A DNA stretch of 41,029 bases, from IMG/VR virus record IMGVR_UViG_3300045988_017677; one strand, 5' to 3'. Below are positions 9,940 to 39,424 of the stretch, piece by piece. A program made the translations under genes and the position numbers. The stretch comes from a virus. How positions within the stretch are numbered: position 1 is the first letter of the stretch; every line of letters starts with the position of its first letter. The notes under the pieces are model-generated. The model was not told the DNA's origin. It worked only from the letters and a program-made list of their open reading frames with translations, and ran no database searches.

Positions 9940-11079
9940 TCACTTTGCGGTCACGCTCGCGTTGCCGCTCTTGAGCGCGTGGTAGTTGCCGTCGCACTCG
10001 ACCACGGTCACGGTCTGGCCGGTCGCAATGGTCAGGTCGCTCTTGCCGTCCCAATCGTTCCAACCGGCAACGTTGTCGCCGTAAGCGACGGTCGCGGCAG
10101 AGGCACCGGACGTGTACTTATACTTGTTGCCCGCAGCGGCCTTTGCCGGAGATACGGTCAGCTTGGTATCGCCGCTCTTGGAGCCTGCGGCAGAGGTGAC
10201 CGTCAAAGAGCCGAGCGTGCCGTTGCCGATGGTGCCAACGACCACGCCGTCAATGCGCTCGGCAAACAGCTCCATGCCGTTAATAACGGTGTCCGATGCG
10301 GTCATGTTGGTGTAATCAGGCTCCTCATGGATGCCGATGTAGCCGGTCGCATCGGTGGTAAAAGTGAAGACCTCCTGCAGATCCGCGCCGTTGACGGGGA
10401 TGTAGTAGAGGACGATGTTGTCCTTCGCCGTGGCGTAAATCTTACCCTTGGGGACGCTGGCGTTCATAATGAGCGTGCCGAGGCCAAGGAAGTTTTCGAC
10501 GTAGCTCATGCCGAACGCGGTCTGCACGGTGATGTTGGCCGTAGACAGGTAATCCGCAACGTCCAGCGGATTCATGAAGTAGACCGCGCCGATCTCGTCG
10601 TCCTCGAAAAGGACCTGCAGATTGCCCCACGCCTGCGCAAGAACAGTCTGGAAGTTCTTGCCGCTCACCGCGCCGGTGCCGGTCGAGAGGAAGTCAAAGA
10701 AGCTCTTGCGGATGCCCTTCTGCACATCCTTGAGCATTTCGTCGGTGGTCATCTCCACCGCCTGATCGTAGCCGCGATCGGTGATCGCCTCGGCAGAGGT
10801 AGCCTTGCGCCACTTCTTGAGCGTGATCTCCTTGTAGTTCACAGCCTCGGTCTTGTAGTGAGAAAGGGGGATGGTGTCACCCTCGGCCACAACGCCGCTC
10901 TCGAGCGTGCCGGTCGCCTTGTAGCTCTTAAGCACAGTACCGGCCTGCTTGGCGATCTTACGGGTCACGCCCAAGGCCTCCATCAGCTTCTTGATGGAGT
11001 AACCGAACATTTCGGTAAATTCGATCTCGCGCACGCGGGCGAGGTCATTTTTCTTGATCAGATTGGTTTCAGCAGCCAT
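9940..11079 (-). CDS. Major capsid protein with C-terminal Ig-like extension
   Basis: 379 aa, following the scaffold gene. The last ~90 aa (TLGSLTVTSAAGSKSGDTKLTVSPAKAAAGNKYKY...) look like an Ig-like decoration domain. Confidence 0.9.
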   Translation of the reverse strand: MAAETNLIKKNDLARVREIEFTEMFGYSIKKLMEALGVTRKIAKQAGTVLKSYKATGTLESGVVAEGDTIPLSHYKTEAVNYKEITLKKWRKATSAEAITDRGYDQAVEMTTDEMLKDVQKGIRKSFFDFLSTGTGAVSGKNFQTVLAQAWGNLQVLFEDDEIGAVYFMNPLDVADYLSTANITVQTAFGMSYVENFLGLGTLIMNASVPKGKIYATAKDNIVLYYIPVNGADLQEVFTFTTDATGYIGIHEEPDYTNMTASDTVINGMELFAERIDGVVVGTIGNGTLGSLTVTSAAGSKSGDTKLTVSPAKAAAGNKYKYTSGASAATVAYGDNVAGWNDWDGKSDLTIATGQTVTVVECDGNYHALKSGNASVTAK

Positions 11080-11750: not shown

Positions 11751-11826
11751 ATAAAAACCGCTGTGCCTCGCGGTGTTTACCTAAAACAAAAGAGCCAACC
11801 ACCGAGGATTTCTCAGTAGTTGGCTC
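11751..11826 (-). terminator. Tandem rho-independent terminators ending the antirepressor cassette
   Basis: On the minus strand, stem gagccaac/gttggctc (11792-11826) is followed by TTTTGTTTT. A second stem accgc/gcggt (11757-11774) is followed by TTTTTAT. Confidence 0.7.
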
Positions 11827-11885
11827 ATCGTGCCGTTCCGCGCGCTCAATTGCGCTGCGTGCGTTATTTACTTGCTGATATTATA

Positions 11886-12626
11886 TCACGCCACGCCCAA
11901 AAACAGCAAGCGGAATGTTTCTCTGCCTTTCGGCGTGATAAGCGTCTGTGCGCCGCTCCAATTCGTCTTTTCGTTTACCGATTCTTTGACTTCGAACAGG
12001 CCGTCGTTCTTGTGTTCATACGGGAGCAGCTTGCCCTTTTTGTCACGGTAAACGTACTTCTTTTCCAGCAGGAAAGAAACGAACTTCTTAGGCGGAACGT
12101 CCAACGCCTTTGCGGTCTCGCGGAAATTCAGCAGCGTATTTCTCTCCACAAGCTGGTCAAAATACTCGGCTTTCGGGAGCATGATCTGATTTTCCACAGT
12201 AAGCGTGGAAATGCGAGCGTCGCGATCCGCAAGCGTTTTCTGTGCCATCAGCAACGCCGATGCCATTAGCTCCTCCGGCGTCATGTTCGCCTGCCCGTTA
12301 ATGTAGCCGCCGTGCTTGCGTATGCTGGGGATAACCTCACTTGTCACCCATCGTTTGAACTTTTTCGCCGTCGGCAGCTTAGAGCCGAGGACGAGGGCGT
12401 AAAGGCCGCTTTCGTTGATAACTACCATGTTTCTGTTTTGGCTGCCGTCGTGAAACGCGACGGTGGCTTTGTCCTCACCATCTACATGGGTAGACACCGC
12501 ATCGCGCGAATTACTGTACCCAAGCGCTTCCGCAACGTCCTTACCGACGAACCACGGCGCACCGTCGCGTTCCATCGTGCGGATATTCCCAAATTCGGGA
12601 TTGTTGAAAATCATTAGTTCGTTCAT
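11886..12626 (-). CDS. Phage antirepressor (Bro-N domain plus KilAC/ANT C-terminal domain)
   Basis: 246 aa. MNELMIFNNPEFGNIRTMERDGAPWFVGKDVAEALGY is a Bro-N signature. The C-terminal half (AEYFDQLVERNTLLNFRETAKAL...) is KilAC-like. Confidence 0.85.
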   Translation of the reverse strand: MNELMIFNNPEFGNIRTMERDGAPWFVGKDVAEALGYSNSRDAVSTHVDGEDKATVAFHDGSQNRNMVVINESGLYALVLGSKLPTAKKFKRWVTSEVIPSIRKHGGYINGQANMTPEELMASALLMAQKTLADRDARISTLTVENQIMLPKAEYFDQLVERNTLLNFRETAKALDVPPKKFVSFLLEKKYVYRDKKGKLLPYEHKNDGLFEVKESVNEKTNWSGAQTLITPKGRETFRLLFLGVA

Positions 12627-12850
12627 GCAATGTCCTCCTTCTTCATCGGGCGCATTTTGATCTCAAGCTCAAAGCTCCCCTCTTTGCCGCAGAAAATATC
12701 TTTCACAATATAGTCCCCGAATACTTCGACCATAACATCGTCATATCCGGACGTGCCAGCACGAAAAAGCGCATATGCGCATCCATTCACGGCAACATCA
12801 ACTTCTTTCGGGTCGTGGATAAGCTCGCAGGCTTCTCTAACAGTAAGCAT
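12623..12850 (-). CDS. Hypothetical protein (75 aa) coupled to the antirepressor
   Basis: SD TGAGGT lies 7 nt upstream of the ATG at 12850. The stop overlaps the antirepressor start. Confidence 0.6.
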   Translation of the reverse strand: MLTVREACELIHDPKEVDVAVNGCAYALFRAGTSGYDDVMVEVFGDYIVKDIFCGKEGSFELEIKMRPMKKEDIA

Positions 12851-12868
12851 AATAAAACCTCATTTCTC

Positions 12869-12898
12869 TTGACTTTGAGGCTTCCACGATGATAGAAT
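12869..12898 (+). promoter_or_regulatory. Antisense sigma70-type promoter
   Basis: TTGACT (12869-12874), an 18-nt spacer, then TAGAAT (12893-12898) preceded by an extended-10 TG (12890-12891). Confidence 0.6.
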
Positions 12899-12904
12899 GA
12901 GATT

Positions 12905-12973
12905 TACCAACGGGGAAACCTGTTGCGATTTGAACGCTCACGTTGTCTTGGTCGGACGGTGGGCGTTCTTTTT
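12905..12973 (+). ncRNA. Candidate ~70-nt antisense sRNA (sar-like)
   Basis: It starts just downstream of the promoter. A 5' hairpin (caacgg 12908-12913 / ctgttg 12920-12925) is followed by a 10-bp terminator stem (12932-12941 / 12959-12968) and ttttt. There is no plausible ORF. Confidence 0.5.
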
Positions 12974-13145
12974 ATTTGCCGATTTCTTCTTCAAGCTTCT
13001 TTCTGAACCACTCCGTTCGGCCCTCGCCCTTTTCGGCGAGTTTTCTATCGAGTGCTTCGGCCTTTTCCTTGTCAACCATAAAAACTAATTGCTTCATGGC
13101 TTTCCTGCGCTCTCGGAAATATTCGGCGCGGCTTTTTTCAGCCAT
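12972..13145 (-). CDS. Arc/CopG-type ribbon-helix-helix protein (57 aa, below the ORF-track cutoff)
   Basis: Hand translation gives MAEKSRAEYFRERRKAMKQLVFMVDKEKAEALDRKLAEKGEGRTEWFRKKLEEEIGK. SD GGAGGTG lies 6 nt before the ATG at 13145. The beta-alpha-alpha pattern is typical of RHH repressors. Confidence 0.65.
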   Translation of the reverse strand: MAEKSRAEYFRERRKAMKQLVFMVDKEKAEALDRKLAEKGEGRTEWFRKKLEEEIGK

Positions 13146-13164
13146 TTCATCACCTCCGTTGTGG

Positions 13165-13201
13165 CTAACTACATTATATTTGTAGTTAGTTACAATGTCA
13201 A
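13165..13201 (-). promoter_or_regulatory. Perfect-consensus promoter overlapped by a palindromic operator
   Basis: On the minus strand, TTGACA (13196-13201), a 17-nt spacer, then TATAAT (13173-13178). The inverted repeat CTAACTACA-N7-TGTAGTTAG (13165-13189) covers the -10 and the likely start site. Confidence 0.7.
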
Positions 13202-13868: not shown

Positions 13869-15359
13869 TCATTTTTTATACCTTCGTGCGAACAGGAGAG
13901 AACCGTTCTCATCCAATGCAATCACATCAAAACCGAACCCATTGCTAACCACGCTGCGAACTGCTCTATCATCTACAATGCGTATAAGCTCATCTGTATT
14001 GATGGATCCTGTGCACTGTAACACAACCCCTCCAGGAGTTTTTGCAATCTGCTTTGTGGCTTTTCGAATCGCCATATCTGCCGCTTTCGCTGTTGATATA
14101 CTTTTCAATTCCCACTGTTTACCTCGCCACAGGTAGTCTGGCGTTTTTATCCCCTGCGTATTCGCTTCTTTCAACAGCACGAACTTCCCGCCGAATTGAT
14201 CTCTGAGTTGGTTTGCAACTTCGATTTCGGTCTTGTGCCCTTTTATGCGGTATCCGTTCTCGTATCGCACCTTACCCATGCGGGGCTTGGCGGAATCTAT
14301 ATATTTCTTCGTAACATCCTTTGCAGATTTTTCGCTCCCCATGTGATATGGGGATAACTGTTTGCCGCTGTATCCCTGCTTCGATGCTTCCCACTGCGCA
14401 TATGTCATGTCAGATATAAGCCCGTCGCGTGTCCTACGCAGCCCGTCTGATGTATCTACCCCATCCACATCAGCAACCAGCGTGCAGCGGCAGTTATACA
14501 CAAGATAACCGGGTGCAGACGCATCGCCGGGGTACATAATCTCGTACCCATCGATTTTAAACGGCTTGTCGATTTCGGCCCGCTGACCGTCCAGCATTGC
14601 ATGGGCGTGCCGAGTTCGTCCGTCCAGCGTCGCCACCCACTCCCGCTTGAGCTTGATGCCCATATTTTCCGCCGCCGCGTAGCTGTCCATGCGCCCCGCG
14701 TTCTGTGCACCTGTCACGGCAGTTCTGGCGGTACGGATAGCGCTGTCGCGGCTCATGGTGGTAATGCGCTTTTGCAGGTCGTCCGCCATGTGCTTGATGC
14801 TCTTTCCCTGCAAGATGGAGCTGGTGACACTGGCCGTAATTTGCTTCTTGCCGTATGCGAGATCAATCCCGCGTTTCAGCGCTCTGCCCTTTGGATAGTA
14901 CGGCATCAACTCCGGTTGCTCCGCAATCAGGCGTTTAACCGTCTGCTCGTCCCACAGGTCAAAGCCGACGTTGCCCACGACCTGCTCGATGGTGTACGCC
15001 GAATAGTTGCGGTTGAGGGAGTAGATACCGGGCGTAGCATCGTTGGTGTAGGACACCGCCACAGCGTTTGCATCGGTCATGCGGTGCGCCACCTTGTCCC
15101 GCATAGCTTGATAGCGTTCTCCGCGCCCGATCTGGTTTAGCCGCCATTGCTTATAGTCAGCCTCCGTCCATTCCTTGCCGTTCTGCACGGTGCCGATCAG
15201 AGCCTTCATTTCCTCGTCGCGCTTTTTGAATTGCTCAAAATATGCGTCGATGGTAGCTTGCAGTTCTTCCCCCGCCTCGCGGTATAGCGTTGCAATACGA
15301 CGTTCCAGCTTCGCAAGCTCCTTATCGGTCAGCTTGTGTCCGAGGTCACTGTTCGCCAT
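13869..15359 (-). CDS. Minor head protein (MuF / SPP1 gp7 family) fused to a C-terminal PD-(D/E)xK-like nuclease/toxin-type domain
   Basis: 496 aa. MuF motifs are WVATLDGRTRHAHAMLDGQ and YLVYNCRCTL (aa ~240-295). An extra ~190 aa carries HKTEIEV, TPDYLWRG and QWELKS. Confidence 0.85.
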   Translation of the reverse strand: MANSDLGHKLTDKELAKLERRIATLYREAGEELQATIDAYFEQFKKRDEEMKALIGTVQNGKEWTEADYKQWRLNQIGRGERYQAMRDKVAHRMTDANAVAVSYTNDATPGIYSLNRNYSAYTIEQVVGNVGFDLWDEQTVKRLIAEQPELMPYYPKGRALKRGIDLAYGKKQITASVTSSILQGKSIKHMADDLQKRITTMSRDSAIRTARTAVTGAQNAGRMDSYAAAENMGIKLKREWVATLDGRTRHAHAMLDGQRAEIDKPFKIDGYEIMYPGDASAPGYLVYNCRCTLVADVDGVDTSDGLRRTRDGLISDMTYAQWEASKQGYSGKQLSPYHMGSEKSAKDVTKKYIDSAKPRMGKVRYENGYRIKGHKTEIEVANQLRDQFGGKFVLLKEANTQGIKTPDYLWRGKQWELKSISTAKAADMAIRKATKQIAKTPGGVVLQCTGSINTDELIRIVDDRAVRSVVSNGFGFDVIALDENGSLLFARRYKK

Positions 15360-30670: not shown

Positions 30671-30953
30671 CGGATGCATCCTCCTTTTCCGGCTCCAGCT
30701 TCCACACATCCCGGGTGACCTTGGAAACCTGGGGGATATCCCCCGCATACAGGGCGTTCAGGAAATCGTCCTCACTGGTTCCGCACAGAACAAAGTGTGG
30801 CTCTGTGATGACCTTGTACCCGGAATATACGGTTGCCTTGTTGCTGCCGCTAACCAGATCGCCCACCTCGGCCACATTGCGCTCCGACCGCATAATTACC
30901 CGGACGCCGCACCTGTCAGCCACGATGGCGTAGTAATGTCTTTGCATCTTCAT
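30657..30953 (-). CDS. Hypothetical protein
   Basis: 98 aa from the ATG at 30953, with ATGA coupling and SD GGAGGTGGAGG. Confidence 0.55.
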   Translation of the reverse strand: MKMQRHYYAIVADRCGVRVIMRSERNVAEVGDLVSGSNKATVYSGYKVITEPHFVLCGTSEDDFLNALYAGDIPQVSKVTRDVWKLEPEKEDASDVDI

Positions 30954-31723
30954 TCCTCCACCTCCAAAATCTCGCCGTTTTGCAGCGCGTACCATGTATT
31001 TTCCTTGACGGCTTCTCCGTCCACCATTACGATTTTGGCATCGATGATGTTTCCGTCATCGTCACGCTCCGATACCACAAGCCAGTTGCCCACAGAGCCT
31101 CTTGCAAGGCTATCTTGTCCCCACGCAACGGCGATGCACTGCTTGCCAATCGCGGATGCTTTCCCATGACAGCCAGTCACAGCAGCCGTGCCACTCACAC
31201 CCGATGCGGCGGCGTTGCCACTCTCACCCGATGCGGCGGCGTTGCCATTCCAGCCCGATGCGGCGGCGTTGCCCCTCCAGCCCGATGCGGCGGCGTTGCC
31301 ACTCTCACCCGATGCGGCGGCGTTGCCCCTCCAGCCCGATGCGGCGGCGTTGCCCCTCACACCCGATGCGGCGGCGTTGCCACTCCAGACCGATGCGTTT
31401 TCCTCGGTTGCGCTCTCGCACTTGTCAATCACAAACCGCACACCGGCGTTGATAACACCTTTCAGCCCGATTTCTGCGCCAATCTTGATATGTTTGCCGC
31501 AAACCTTGCTGTCATAGCTGCTACGCTGTCCGTTGTCCTCAATCTCCACCTCGCAGTACCGGCTATCGCCAGGTCTATAGTAGCGTAGCGTGTCCAGCGG
31601 GTTCTCGCAGGCGTGGAATCCCTTTTTGCACAGAGCGGCGTTTTCCTCCTCGTACTCCTTACCTACTTCGTACTGAAATTCTCTACATTTCAGGTCTTTA
31701 TCAAATCCCTTGTATGCCTTCAT
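30950..31723 (-). CDS. DUF7666-like protein with nonapeptide (GNAAASGxx) repeats
   Basis: 257 aa. The N-terminus MKAYKGFDKDLKCREFQYEVGKEYEE...GFHACENPLDTLRYY is followed by 7-8 tandem 9-aa repeats. Confidence 0.7.
   Translation of the reverse strand: MKAYKGFDKDLKCREFQYEVGKEYEEENAALCKKGFHACENPLDTLRYYRPGDSRYCEVEIEDNGQRSSYDSKVCGKHIKIGAEIGLKGVINAGVRFVIDKCESATEENASVWSGNAAASGVRGNAAASGWRGNAAASGESGNAAASGWRGNAAASGWNGNAAASGESGNAAASGVSGTAAVTGCHGKASAIGKQCIAVAWGQDSLARGSVGNWLVVSERDDDGNIIDAKIVMVDGEAVKENTWYALQNGEILEVEE
31173..31400. repeat. 27-nt tandem repeat, 7 near-identical units plus degenerate flanks (coding)
   Basis: Units start at 31200, 31227, 31254, 31281, 31308, 31335 and 31362. A 20-nt core cccgatgcggcggcgttgcc is followed by 7 variable nt. 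Confidence 0.95.
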
Positions 31724-32993: not shown

Positions 32994-33350
32994 ATGGGAT
33001 TTACCAAAAACTTTAATTATTGCATGGAGCAGTACGGATACTCCGCTTACCGTTTTGCAAAGATAATAGGCGCAAACAACCAAAGCGTTGTTAATTGGCT
33101 GTATGGTTCAAATGTTCCCCATCCCAAAACCAGGCAGAAGATTGCTGACCATTTCGGTATTACGCTTGCCAAGCTGGACGGGGACGAATTGCCAACATTG
33201 CCGGAAAAGAGCGCAAAAAAAGCCCCCGGCATAAATGCCGAGGGATTGAGCGCAGCACGGAAAGCGTTGCTTGATGCAGTTGATGGCTTGACCGATGAGC
33301 AATGCGAGAAGCTATTGGGCATTGTACTGGAAGCTAAGAGGGTGCTGTAA
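32994..33350 (+). CDS. XRE-family HTH regulator (CI-like candidate, no peptidase domain)
   Basis: 118 aa. HTH segment YRFAKIIGANNQSVVNWLYG. The SD is weak or absent. Confidence 0.75.
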   Translation: MGFTKNFNYCMEQYGYSAYRFAKIIGANNQSVVNWLYGSNVPHPKTRQKIADHFGITLAKLDGDELPTLPEKSAKKAPGINAEGLSAARKALLDAVDGLTDEQCEKLLGIVLEAKRVL

Positions 33351-34075: not shown

Positions 34076-34657
34076 ATGGAGAAATCGTTGCAGGACACTT
34101 GTCGGGACGCAAAACTGGAACAGCACATCACGGCGCAGGAGATAGCAGACCAATCCGGTGTGCCTTTGTCCAGCGTCAACAACTTTTTCGCGTCTACATC
34201 TAAAGCACCGGGCGTGTATGCGGCTGGCCCCATCTGCAAGGTGCTGGGGGTGTCTATGGACCGTTACTTTGGCATTGTAGAGGTTGTTTTGGCGCAAGAC
34301 CAAATCAAGCAGCTCCAGCAAGTCCATGACGAGGATGTGCGCCTTGCACGGATAGAGGGCGCATACGATGAGCTGTCTAAATCAGCAGAGGAGCAGAAGA
34401 GAAAAGCAAGGCGGCAGCGCACGATGCTGTATATCACATCGCTGCTGTCCGCTATCCTGCTGGGTATAGTTACATGGTATGTGGCGCTTGATTACCATGT
34501 GCAGGACGAAGGCCTAATCCGATCCAGGACAGCCGGTACGATTGCATGGATTGTCATTGCGCTTTTGGCGTTGGGTATCGGCGTACTTACATCCGTGCTA
34601 TTGTCCACTCTTGCGGCGGGCAAAAAATCCAAACAAGACGAGGAAGCAGAAAAATGA
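34076..34657 (+). CDS. Membrane-anchored XRE-type HTH regulator (HTH, coiled coil, 2 TM)
   Basis: 193 aa from the ATG at 34076. HTH segment ITAQEIADQSGVPLSSVNNFF. A charged helix follows, then two TMs (LYITSLLSAILLGIVTWYVAL and IAWIVIALLALGIGVLTSVLLSTL). The stop overlaps the int start (ATGA). Confidence 0.7.
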   Translation: MEKSLQDTCRDAKLEQHITAQEIADQSGVPLSSVNNFFASTSKAPGVYAAGPICKVLGVSMDRYFGIVEVVLAQDQIKQLQQVHDEDVRLARIEGAYDELSKSAEEQKRKARRQRTMLYITSLLSAILLGIVTWYVALDYHVQDEGLIRSRTAGTIAWIVIALLALGIGVLTSVLLSTLAAGKKSKQDEEAEK

Positions 34658-35748
34658 GCAACTGCATTAAATGCGGAACAACTCTTGTCCCCGGCGCTGT
34701 ATATTGCCATCTCTGTGGAAAAAAACAGGTAACAGAGCGGCGAAAAGCATTGAAGCGGGCAAACGGCACCGGAACTGTATACAAACTGGCTGGGCGTAGA
34801 AAATCGCCTTGGGTGGCAGCAAAAAACAAAGTGATTATCGGGCATTATGAGCGCAAAACGGGCGCTCTGGACGCTTTGGAGCGGTTGAACGGCAAGAGCT
34901 TAACGGAGCGGTATAATATGACCTTTGCAGAAGTCTTTGATGTGTGGAAAGAGGAGCATTACAAGGAGATCGGCAAGCAGGGGGTAGAATCATATAACAA
35001 CGCCTACCGCATATTTACGCCGTTGCACGGGAAAAAGTTTCGCGATCTCCGCACCGCAGACTTTCAGGCCGTACTTGACCCGCACATGGCCAAAAGCCAT
35101 TCCACCGTGAACAAGTACAAGCAGCTCATAACGCAGATGTCGAACTGGGCAATCCGGGAAGAAATATGCACGACAAATTTTGCAAAATTTGTGCGATTGC
35201 CGGAGAATGTCAAAAAAGAAAAGGACATCTTCACGGAGGAAGATATCCGTAAATTGGAATCCGATAACAGCGATTCGGCAAAAATTGTCTTGATGCTGCT
35301 GGCAACGGGTATGCGTATCGGGGAACTGTTCTCTTTGCCGCTGGCTGACTGCCACGGCGATTATGTGATTGGCGGCGAAAAAACCGAAGCCGGCAGAAAC
35401 CGAATTATCCCCATTCGACCGGAGGGGAAACAATACTTTGCCTACTTTGCGAAGCGAGCAACGGGGGAGCTGCTGTTATCCGGCTACGATGGGCAAAAAG
35501 TCCCGGCAAACTTCCGCAGGCGAGATTTTTACCCACTCCTTGACCGACTGGGCATAGAGCGCAAGACCCCACACGCCACACGCCACACATACGCATCCCG
35601 GGCGGTAAAAGAGGGATTGCCCCCAGAAATGCTGCAAAAAATACTCGGGCACGCCGATTATTCCACCACCGCAAACATATATACGCACATCGACGCGCAG
35701 ACACTTGTGGATGCGGTTACTAACACGTTACTAACAAATAAAAAATAA
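34654..35748 (+). CDS. int: Tyrosine integrase with N-terminal zinc-ribbon
   Basis: 364 aa. Motifs: CIKCGTTLVPGAVYCHLCG, then ATGMRIGEL, HATRHTYAS and LGHADYSTTANIYTH. Confidence 0.95.
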   Translation: MSNCIKCGTTLVPGAVYCHLCGKKQVTERRKALKRANGTGTVYKLAGRRKSPWVAAKNKVIIGHYERKTGALDALERLNGKSLTERYNMTFAEVFDVWKEEHYKEIGKQGVESYNNAYRIFTPLHGKKFRDLRTADFQAVLDPHMAKSHSTVNKYKQLITQMSNWAIREEICTTNFAKFVRLPENVKKEKDIFTEEDIRKLESDNSDSAKIVLMLLATGMRIGELFSLPLADCHGDYVIGGEKTEAGRNRIIPIRPEGKQYFAYFAKRATGELLLSGYDGQKVPANFRRRDFYPLLDRLGIERKTPHATRHTYASRAVKEGLPPEMLQKILGHADYSTTANIYTHIDAQTLVDAVTNTLLTNKK

Positions 35749-39283: not shown

Positions 39284-39424
39284 TTAATCTTCTTTTTTTA
39301 TTGCCTCTTTAATTAGTTTCTCGATGTAGTTCGAGACGCTGCGGCCATCCGCTTCGGCGGCGGCCTGCAGTTGGGATTTGAGATCCGGTGTGATCCGGAT
39401 TACGAGACGATCGGTTTTTGCCAT
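39284..39424 (-). CDS. CopG/ParD-type ribbon-helix-helix protein (46 aa)
   Basis: MAKTDRLVIRITPDLKSQLQAAAEADGRSVSNYIEKLIKEAIKKED. The start lies 1 nt after the stop of the acidic gene. The longer track ORF is an out-of-context hydrophobic extension. Confidence 0.65.
   Translation of the reverse strand: MAKTDRLVIRITPDLKSQLQAAAEADGRSVSNYIEKLIKEAIKKED

Follow-up and report, generated by a model that had tools for sequence, protein, structure and literature searches.

The viral record IMGVR_UViG_3300045988_017677, a stretch of 41,029 nucleotides (nt) to which we refer as a whole as the window, is an apparently complete, circularly permuted genome of a temperate phage of 41 kb, and the subject of this analysis is a compact unit on its minus strand, between the minor-head/gp10 genes and the scaffold gene. 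We consider it likely that this region is a horizontally mobile transcription unit, or moron, gated by a ribbon-helix-helix (RHH) protein and an antisense RNA, and lodged in a terminator-bounded gap between the minor-head/gp10 and scaffold genes of a temperate phage of Oscillospiraceae-type gut Clostridia. An earlier note on this DNA had described here a self-contained cassette with a logic similar to that of the immI region of Salmonella phage P22, made up of a perfect-consensus promoter with an overlapping palindromic operator, a 57-amino-acid (aa) RHH protein, an antisense promoter/terminator cassette, a 75-aa open reading frame (ORF), a Bro-N/KilAC antirepressor and two tandem terminators. 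All of these features are present on the minus-strand unit, as follows:

13344-13216, minus: 42-aa ORF, first gene of the shared mobile block, lacking a promoter of its own
13201-13173, minus: cassette promoter TTGACA-17-TATAAT (-35 at 13201-13196, -10 at 13178-13173; transcription presumably starts near 13166)
13159-13195: operator sites O1 (13195-13181, in the promoter spacer) and O2 (13173-13159, over the presumed start), a 15-nt inverted repeat around the -10
13145-12972, minus: 57-aa RHH-like protein, a beta-alpha-alpha unit behind a basic N-terminal tail; presumed autorepressor
121 nt between the 57-aa and 75-aa ORFs: spacer
12869-12898, plus: antisense promoter TTGACT-18-TG.TAGAAT, with an extended -10
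12905-12976, plus: predicted cis-antisense RNA of ~70 nt, with a 5' segment holding a small hairpin, a terminator hairpin (12932-12968) and a U-run
12921-12878, minus: leader hairpin H2, with the antisense -10 in its apical loop and upper stem
12850-12623, minus: 75-aa ORF (ORF75), its TGA stop overlapping the next ATG (ATGA)
12626-11886, minus: 246-aa Bro-N + ANT/KilAC protein, the cargo, annotated 'anti-repressor'
11826-11783, minus: terminator T1 (hairpin 11826-11792), a 15-bp stem followed by UUUUGUUUU; right end of the shared block
11782-11701, minus: hairpin T2 (11774-11757) and scaffold leader, a resident element of the head module outside the cassette

A survey of related phages for the same cassette, as proposed in the earlier note, yielded 88 loci encoding relatives of the 57-aa protein (42-100% identical), in which the signals recur as a conserved unit and not as chance occurrences. 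From these loci (designated by L numbers), unique subsets of 57 upstream regions were used for the promoter and operators, and of 44 spacers for the antisense signals and H2. The sources of the related sequences are metagenomes of the human gut and genomes of Clostridia, either Oscillospiraceae or their neighbours, the genera represented being Faecousia, Muriventricola, Pseudoflavonifractor, Colidextribacter, Flavonifractor, Oscillibacter and Butyricicoccus.

Mobility of the cassette and its insertion slot

The block shared with other genomes extends from the ribosome site of the 42-aa ORF to just past T1 (13361-11782, by blastn). It is 93-99% identical in L006 and L008, whose flanking head genes are unrelated to those of the window (Phage_min_cap2 with unrelated portal, scaffold and capsid genes), and its right border falls at 11782-11788 in both. 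Elsewhere the flanking modules are MuF plus gp10 (L003-L005) or a mosaic (L007), and in six contigs with an identical 57-aa protein the spacing of the 57-, 75- and 246-aa ORFs is unchanged and the cassette stands directly 5' of the scaffold gene. The cassette is absent from the MuF/gp10/scaffold/capsid relatives Dulem virus 33 (L002), MT835551.1 (L091) and MT838701.1 (L092), and in the same slot Flavonifractor phage Chenonceau (L001) carries seven other small genes, a transcriptional regulator and an annotated 'Arc-like repressor' among them; in this phage the anti-repressor gene is found upstream of the small terminase gene. With a predicted promoter and terminator of its own, and present in some syntenic relatives and absent from others, the cassette has the attributes of a moron. 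Its description as self-contained thus holds for its signals and needs extending at its left end, where the shared block also takes in the 42-aa ORF; this ORF is 97-100% identical in all close cassette copies, those in unrelated head modules included. We note in passing that the 42-aa ORF resembles, below threshold, the C-terminal portion of lambda Cro (PF09048, E = 1.5e-4). A 50-aa ORF of weak similarity to it (E = 4e-4) occupies this slot in Dulem virus 33, which lacks the cassette.

The right-hand boundary requires a revision of the earlier picture. Both T1 and T2, the latter consisting of ACCGCGAGGCACAGCGGT followed by UUUUUAUA, are predicted as terminator hairpins on the minus strand (z = -6), and to this extent the tandem terminators stand. 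Cassette-less relatives, however, also keep a strong terminator-like hairpin and T-run between gp10 and scaffold, and the T1 hairpin itself is found in Dulem virus 33. The element at 11782-11701 is 78-86% identical in the cassette-less L002 (3980-4063) and L091 (2664-2743), where the genes flanking it are only 58-75% identical; it always lies 3' of a strong terminator, and it is absent 3' of the cassette in L006 and L008. Since relatives without the cassette are terminator-bearing too, the terminators before the scaffold gene, and with them the T2/scaffold leader, are resident in the head module, which probably accounts for the tolerance of this gap towards insertions. It follows that the need of the scaffold and capsid genes for read-through or a separate late promoter, to which the earlier note had drawn attention, is real, but that the cassette is not its cause. 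The T2/scaffold-leader element may itself serve the scaffold/capsid operon, whether as late promoter, antitermination site or processing element.

Promoter, operators and the RHH-like protein

The cassette promoter matches the sigma-70 consensus at 12 of 12 positions, with the 15-nt inverted repeat around its -10. It is the sole 12/12 match within the 41-kb window, for which we estimate a chance expectation of ~0.015, and a score of at least 10/12 is retained in 40 of the 57 unique upstream regions. In most loci the order is -35, quasi-palindrome, -10, second quasi-palindrome over the presumed start, GGAGG and start codon. The operator sites are quasi-palindromes of 12-16 bp with the general form GT[A/T]G-N4-6-C[T/A]AC (TGTAG-N4-6-CTACA in the window, with a distance of 22 bp between the centres of O1 and O2), and no further copy was found elsewhere in the window. 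The two sites are alike inside one locus and unlike from locus to locus: native O1/O2 pairs share 10.8 positions, swapped pairs 8.4 (p = 1e-13; 57 unique, related loci). Because O1 and O2 look alike, one protein probably binds both, and because O2 lies inside the transcript and O1 outside it, the repeats are better explained as a DNA operator than as an RNA hairpin. Moreover, the operator core tracks the predicted beta-strand of the 57-aa protein, KQLVF[ML]V occurring with TTAGC-type and KQFSVLS with GCGC-type cores.

What kind of protein might read these sites? The earlier note had called the 57-aa product an RHH protein; the ORF is confirmed, and the assignment rests on weak, in-register, sub-threshold matches. 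Weak matches to RHH_1, all below threshold, were obtained with 25 of the 37 close members of the family (E = 3.7e-4 at best), and matches to RepB-RCR_reg with 6 of 51 members, these being more distant ones. Profile searches of the Protein Data Bank (PDB) gave weak but in-register matches to AvtR (E = 0.2) and ParG (E = 0.6), while a PDB sequence search gave weak matches at most; hhalign places the family in register with P22 Arc (P = 4.7e-4, probability 32.5%), and NCBIfam returned only a trace of VapB (18 bits against a cut-off of 60). The strongest argument comes from context. MT835537.1 (L093) conserves the leader along with an ORF75 homologue and a Bro-N/ANT gene, and its first gene encodes a protein of another kind, a canonical RHH_1 (24.7 bits, cut-off 20.5). 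This gene is preceded by a promoter with inverted repeat of the form TTGACC-[CTTTCTTTGTCGCTAC]-TATACT-[GTGGCAACAAAGAAAG] and accompanied by an antisense terminator of its own. This replacement indicates that a bona fide RHH protein can stand in for the 57-aa protein, with the operator changing along with it. Several weak lines thus agree that the 57-aa protein may have an RHH fold, and it very probably represses its own promoter.

The family is compact: clustering at 50% identity places it in 110 of the clusters drawn from 1.84 billion representative proteins. An index of assemblies lists 361 blocks that encode the identical 57-aa protein. Members occur in the cultured Colidextribacter sp. OB.20, Muriventricola aceti, Pseudoflavonifractor sp. 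524-17 and Flavonifractor plautii ATCC 29863. A tblastn search of 50,697 deposited phage records with the 57-aa protein gave no match, and the L093 leader was the single find of a blastn search of deposited phage records. Other small RHH genes were seen as well. The stretch of the window that separates the lysis genes from the integrase encodes a canonical 45-aa RHH protein (39284-39421, minus; RHH_5 32.5 bits, Arc 21.9 bits), which is unrelated to the 57-aa family and has no cassette-type operator nearby. In four loci the 57-aa homologue stands beside arrays of two to three different small RHH genes (L013 4383-4930, L014 2663-2833, L022 3173-3782, L015 3629-3817), and the RHH gene that comes next in L013 and L014 is preceded by a separate promoter, TTGAC(A/T)/TATAAT, whose -10 is bracketed by an inverted repeat.

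Cargo genes

The domains of the 246-aa protein are unambiguous, with scores of 96.1 bits for Bro-N (cut-off 25.6) and 81.8 bits for ANT (cut-off 25.3). It matches phrog_130 (E = 1e-76), and the matching PHROGs families are labelled anti-repressor; no solved structural relative was found. The Bro-N/KilAC antirepressor of the earlier note is therefore borne out as to its domains, whereas 'antirepressor' is a family name and not a demonstrated function, and we caution that this annotation on Bro-N/KilAC genes in general should not be read as one. The ATGA overlap suggests that translation of the Bro-N/KilAC gene is coupled to that of ORF75, an arrangement that recalls icd-ant of phage P1. ORF75 is narrowly distributed, with homologues in only eight clusters, is modelled confidently by AlphaFold2 (AF2) as a small alpha/beta fold (pLDDT 83), and gave neither a family nor a PDB fold match, only weak similarity to uncharacterised viral proteins. 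Its homologues precede a Bro-N gene also in L019/L067 and L093.

By tblastn, Bro-N and/or KilAC is encoded within ~1 kb 3' of the RHH gene in about half of the 88 loci. Other cargoes sampled were pRha+ANT, pRha, ORF6N, AntA/AntB, Bro-N and DUF3102, and a DnaB_2 replication protein lies downstream in one related locus, L016. The place of the cassette changes too in distant relatives, where it precedes the small terminase gene, lies close to the lysis genes or falls within the tail module. Since both cargo and location vary, what is conserved is the regulatory front end, and the proteins placed under it are mostly of the Ant type. By analogy, the cargo of the window would be an Ant/AriS-type regulator that either inactivates a CI-type repressor or damps the SOS response of the host.

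The second of these activities underlies the strongest alternative to our reading. Azulay et al. (PMC9043618) showed that Listeria phage proteins that join AntA, Bro-N or pRha to ANT/KilAC inhibit the SOS response through KilAC and tune early and late transcription; AriS itself is not the antirepressor. It is possible, though less likely than not, that the same front end governs an AriS-like dual regulator instead of an antirepressor, with KilAC damping RecA/SOS and Bro-N tuning early and late transcription. The two-domain architecture is the same, as far as a comparison of domains alone can tell; the Bro-N+KilAC protein Lin2418 was among the Listeria SOS blockers tested, and the N-terminal domains of the cargo proteins in related loci alternate exactly as they do among the SOS-blocking proteins. 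A position in the late region would also suit the timing role of such a regulator. Set against this are the anti-repressor label of the PHROGs families and the 118-aa CI-like repressor of this phage, for which neither an S24 peptidase domain nor an ImmA-type partner was found, so that an antirepressor would be useful. An RHH/antisense front end is not reported in the available text of the Listeria study. A private control unit in the structural region seems unusual for phages of Firmicutes, judging from Clostridioides difficile phage phiCDKH01, in which KilAC genes lie in the early region under an XRE repressor (PMC11172241).

We also considered a toxin-antitoxin or abortive-infection moron, in which the RHH protein would serve as antitoxin or autoregulator, the antisense RNA as an antitoxin resembling those of type I, and ORF75 or KilAC as growth inhibitor. 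RHH proteins are common antitoxins, the family shows its weak match to VapB, the cargo would be under tight control at two levels, and Gp07 of phage phi11 (Bro-N + KilA-C) is reported to inhibit growth when overexpressed (PMC5944126). We nevertheless judge this reading improbable: a PADLOC search gave no matches, the 57-aa protein has no C-terminal toxin-binding extension, the 121-nt structured spacer separates the two genes, and the cargo families are regulators with a DNA-binding N-terminus. A moron that gates a regulator of this sort remains our preferred interpretation.

A conserved, predicted antisense RNA in the spacer

The spacer between the RHH gene and ORF75 diverges among loci, and a MAFFT alignment of the 44 unique spacers shows conservation in no columns but those of the antisense -10 and -35. 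The antisense promoter scores at least 9/12 in 41 of the 44 loci, the extended -10 TG is kept in 39, and the promoter spacer measures 17 nt in 37 loci and 18 nt in the remaining 7. On the plus strand of the window, the hairpin at 12932-12968 is followed by T5 and reaches the stop codon of the 57-aa ORF, and the predicted 76-nt antisense RNA folds into two hairpins (-29.2 kcal/mol, z = -4.05). The terminator fold is more stable on the antisense than on the sense strand in 42 of the 44 loci (mean -20.4 versus -13.8 kcal/mol, p = 1e-8), its G.U pairs number 148 in the antisense orientation and 17 in the other, and the U-run after the hairpin is found on the antisense strand alone. The antisense promoter/terminator cassette of the earlier note is thus kept across the family, and the comparison strongly supports a spacer-encoded countertranscript of ~70-80 nt with a real intrinsic terminator. 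No Rfam family reaches its gathering score here; a sub-threshold, full-length match to ctRNA_pT181 (RF00242; 12892-12981, plus; 23.3 bits against a gathering score of 56, E = 3.7) is by its score probably due to chance, though its strand and extent fit.

Could these signals lack a regulatory role, the hairpin being merely a bidirectional or protective terminator and the promoter-like site incidental? AT-rich spacers readily yield -10-like hexamers, and the antisense transcript is a prediction. The pattern of conservation makes this reading more improbable even than a toxin-antitoxin unit, since the -35, -10 and TG stand out as the sole conserved columns, at a fixed spacing of 17-18 nt, and the terminator is specific to the antisense strand in nearly every locus. 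We therefore keep the countertranscript as the second gate of the moron.

Leader hairpin H2 and a possible translation switch

A second element of the spacer is constrained in its pairing and not in its sequence. Hairpin H2, with a mean of ~15 bp, is present in all 44 unique loci between the antisense terminator and the antisense -35. Its native arms pair with -19.2 kcal/mol, as compared with -9.7 for arms swapped among loci (p = 1e-26), and because the arm sequences themselves are not conserved, the constraint must act on pairing. H2 was assessed by folding each locus separately with such arm-swap controls; RNAalifold, run on an ungapped, anchor-centred alignment of the 44 H2 regions, predicted no pairs, because the register of the stem shifts among loci. 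The 5' arm is part of the target of the antisense RNA and the 3' arm forms the spacer of the antisense promoter. As read by eye, the 3' arm contains CCUC, an anti-Shine-Dalgarno sequence, in ~24 of the 44 loci, with GAGG in the 5' arm. Since a transcript that starts ~7 nt past the antisense -10 would hold one arm only, H2 should form in the sense mRNA, and we assume that it acts there.

These relationships suggest a three-segment switch, in which pairing of the antisense RNA with the leader would release the H2 3' arm to occlude the ribosome site of ORF75. In partition-function calculations on 36 leaders, the Shine-Dalgarno site is unpaired with a probability of 0.53 in the free leader and 0.18 when the antisense-covered segment is blocked, and shuffling of the 3' arm in the blocked state restores accessibility to 0.45. 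For the site of the window the values are 0.52 free and 0.00 blocked, with a second pairing, 12905-12896 with 12864-12855, also contributing to occlusion. We give this exact mechanism slightly less than an even chance; pairing of the CCUC-rich 5' end of the antisense RNA with the ribosome site, cleavage by RNase III, and attenuation are possible alternatives.

A model for burst and latch-off

We propose the following model for the operation of the cassette. The consensus, host-type promoter would transcribe the genes for the 57-aa RHH protein, ORF75 and the 246-aa protein, and transcription would stop at T1. Judging from the co-variation of operator and protein and from the L093 replacement, the RHH protein would bind both sites around the -10 and close its own promoter. 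The convergent extended -10 promoter would give rise to the antisense RNA of ~70 nt ending at the RHH stop codon, which would pair with the leader just 5' of the ORF75 ribosome site and thereby break H2, a step taken from modelling; the freed CCUC-rich 3' arm, or the 5' end of the antisense RNA itself, would then hide the Shine-Dalgarno site and block both ORF75 and the coupled Bro-N/KilAC gene. On arrival of the DNA in a cell with neither RHH protein nor RNA, the promoter should fire with host RNA polymerase, yielding a burst of RHH, ORF75 and Bro-N/KilAC proteins, during which, as we surmise, strong convergent transcription holds the antisense promoter down. Accumulation of the RHH protein would close the promoter and relieve the antisense promoter, whose RNA would block residual and read-through transcripts. 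The cargo would thus be latched off at a low steady state in the lysogen, the same behaviour as that of arc-sar-ant in P22 and copG-rnaII-repB in pMV158. During the burst, the cargo could act as P22 Ant does and inactivate CI-type repressors, whether of the same phage or of prophages already in the cell, or it could damp RecA/SOS.

Several observations weigh against this model. All transcripts and binding events in it are deduced from the DNA, and the function of the cargo is putative, by analogy. The loci are phylogenetically related, so the p-values of comparisons among them overstate independence. The 57-aa protein has no above-threshold Pfam match; its AF2 monomer is a low-confidence model of three helices, in which a helix replaces the expected strand, and Foldseek found no match to that monomer. 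H2 shows no strand bias (47 G.U versus 85 A.C positions); with the antisense -10 in its loop, it could also be a switch that is read on both strands. In the window, shuffling the 3' arm does not relieve the predicted occlusion of the Shine-Dalgarno site in the bound state, which implies that details of the switch vary from locus to locus. Neither a Mnt-like maintenance repressor nor a LexA/Cheo box was found anywhere in the 41-kb window. There is consequently no SOS link to be seen there, and the silence of the consensus promoter in lysogens would have to depend on autoregulation and the RNA alone.

To our knowledge, almost nothing is known of lysogeny control in the temperate phages of dominant gut Clostridia, the Oscillospiraceae and their relatives. 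Our tentative proposal, which we hold at somewhat less than an even chance, is that the front end, comprising the RHH protein, two operators, antisense RNA and H2, is an unrecognised, portable controller of the type 'entry burst, then latch-off', built from new RHH and antisense RNA/leader families, operating in the manner of plasmid copy-control circuits and gating Ant/AriS-type effectors in many phages of gut Clostridia. If true, this controller would set rules of superinfection and prophage cross-talk in the human gut. The design of the circuit will not surprise a specialist. The cassette nonetheless offers a compact, fully specified, conserved and directly testable control module, and with it a candidate new regulatory RNA and RHH family, widespread in gut phages and endowed with natural variants of operator and specificity.

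Relation to known systems

In open-access text we found no paper that describes this cassette, in line with the statement of the earlier note that the arrangement was not known to it from phages of this type. The likeness to P22 immI, which that note had put forward as architectural, is borne out by the annotated P22 record, and is closer than the letters alone could show. There the Arc operator lies inside Pant and the Mnt operator just downstream, followed in order by arc, a 70-nt sar RNA with its terminator over the arc stop codon, ant, a terminator and the tailspike gene; the region was called the 'ant moron' by Villafane et al. and varies among related phages (PMC2629481). Both are units with transcription signals of their own within a late/structural region, with RHH operators (putative here) within and just after the promoter, a small gene for an RHH autorepressor (RHH-like and presumed here) in first position, a cis-antisense RNA of ~70 nt (predicted here) from the spacer between RHH and cargo genes, an antisense terminator abutting the RHH stop, a lysogeny regulator (putative here) as cargo, and a terminator before the next late gene. 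The components, in contrast, differ. Ant consists of P22_AR_N and P22_AR_C, the window cargo of Bro-N/ANT, and BLASTP finds no similarity between the 246-aa protein and Ant (E = 8.5); Arc scores 106.6 bits against PF03869, whereas the 57-aa protein has no Arc-family match. Here there is no divergent mnt counterpart, the sole upstream gene being the co-directional 42-aa ORF. The antisense promoter lies in the spacer and not, as in P22, inside the cargo gene, and the antisense RNA stops short of the ribosome site that sar covers; ORF75, coupled to the cargo, is additional. The hosts are Gram-positive gut Clostridia, and the insertion is between gp10 and scaffold, not between gene 16 and tailspike. 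The earlier note had claimed no sequence homology to P22, rightly so given the Ant comparison and an hhalign probability for Arc of 32.5%. Common descent from arc-sar-ant is the least probable of the readings considered and is largely refuted, the shared order of parts and the weak in-register match to Arc being outweighed by unrelated proteins, the missing mnt, the different position of the antisense promoter and hosts in different phyla.

For the shape and position of the RNA, plasmid pMV158 (Pcr, copG, rnaII, repB) provides the closest match. Its RNAII is 48 nt long and wholly intergenic, consists of a 5' tail and an intrinsic terminator, and inhibits translation (PMC4485353). There, too, an RHH protein (CopG) heads a bicistronic operon and represses its own promoter, as we predict for the 57-aa protein, and the target of the countertranscript lies directly 5' of the downstream translation signals; the weak matches of the 57-aa family to RHH_1/CopG and RepB-RCR_reg point the same way, and one source names the protein 'replication regulatory protein'. 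In the window, however, the cargo is ORF75 and Bro-N/KilAC and not a replication initiator, the RNA is ~70 nt instead of 48, the cassette sits in a phage structural operon, H2 with its antisense -10 has no described counterpart, and the likeness to CopG falls short of demonstrated homology.

A third resemblance is to the attenuation systems of pT181 and pIP501. Their leader has three segments, the middle one becoming free to pair with the downstream one once the antisense RNA has paired with the 5' segment. As read by eye, a U-rich stretch follows the alternative hairpin in ~21 of 36 loci; U-rich spacers before start codons are common, though, and the ctRNA_pT181 score is far below gathering. 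Because the downstream segment here is the Shine-Dalgarno site, unlike in pT181/pIP501, we favour translational control.

From its sequence, then, the circuit of RHH autorepressor and countertranscript known from P22 immI and pMV158 appears to have been assembled again from unrelated parts. Such repeated assembly suggests that the design itself is selected, probably for a burst on entry followed by self-imposed shut-off.

Other features of the genome

The genes flanking the cassette and those of the lysogeny region are the following:

16701-15346, minus: portal
15359-13869, minus: MuF-like minor head protein
13817-13353, minus: HK97-gp10-like protein
11729-11082, minus: scaffold gene
11079-9940, minus: major capsid gene
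~34651-35748, plus: tyrosine integrase
32994-33350, plus: XRE-type CI-like protein, 118 aa
32273-32073, minus: Cro-like protein, 66 aa

Every gene in the part of the window around the cassette is carried by the minus strand. The window further encodes a 193-aa helix-turn-helix (HTH) protein with predicted membrane segments.

The MuF-like protein (13869-15359, minus) has 496 aa in the window and ~335 aa in the close relatives L003-L005; its extra C-terminal part (residues ~340-496) has a weak, sub-threshold match to a CdiA_C toxin domain (E = 2.5e-4), and the protein may be a MuF-fused polymorphic toxin. The major capsid protein (9940-11079, minus) ends in an S-layer SbsC_C-type (Ig-like) domain (46 bits) that is lacking in the otherwise similar capsids of relatives (300-aa versions). 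A 257-aa protein of the early region (30950-31723, minus) contains about nine tandem copies of G(N/T)AAASG(W/E/V)(R/S/N). Finally, a gene-free gap of ~700-900 nt precedes the small terminase gene in four related loci (L003 4648-5327, L004 4484-5375, L005 4448-5370, L008 3023-3908), and in L003, L005 and L008 this gap is itself preceded by a small HTH gene.

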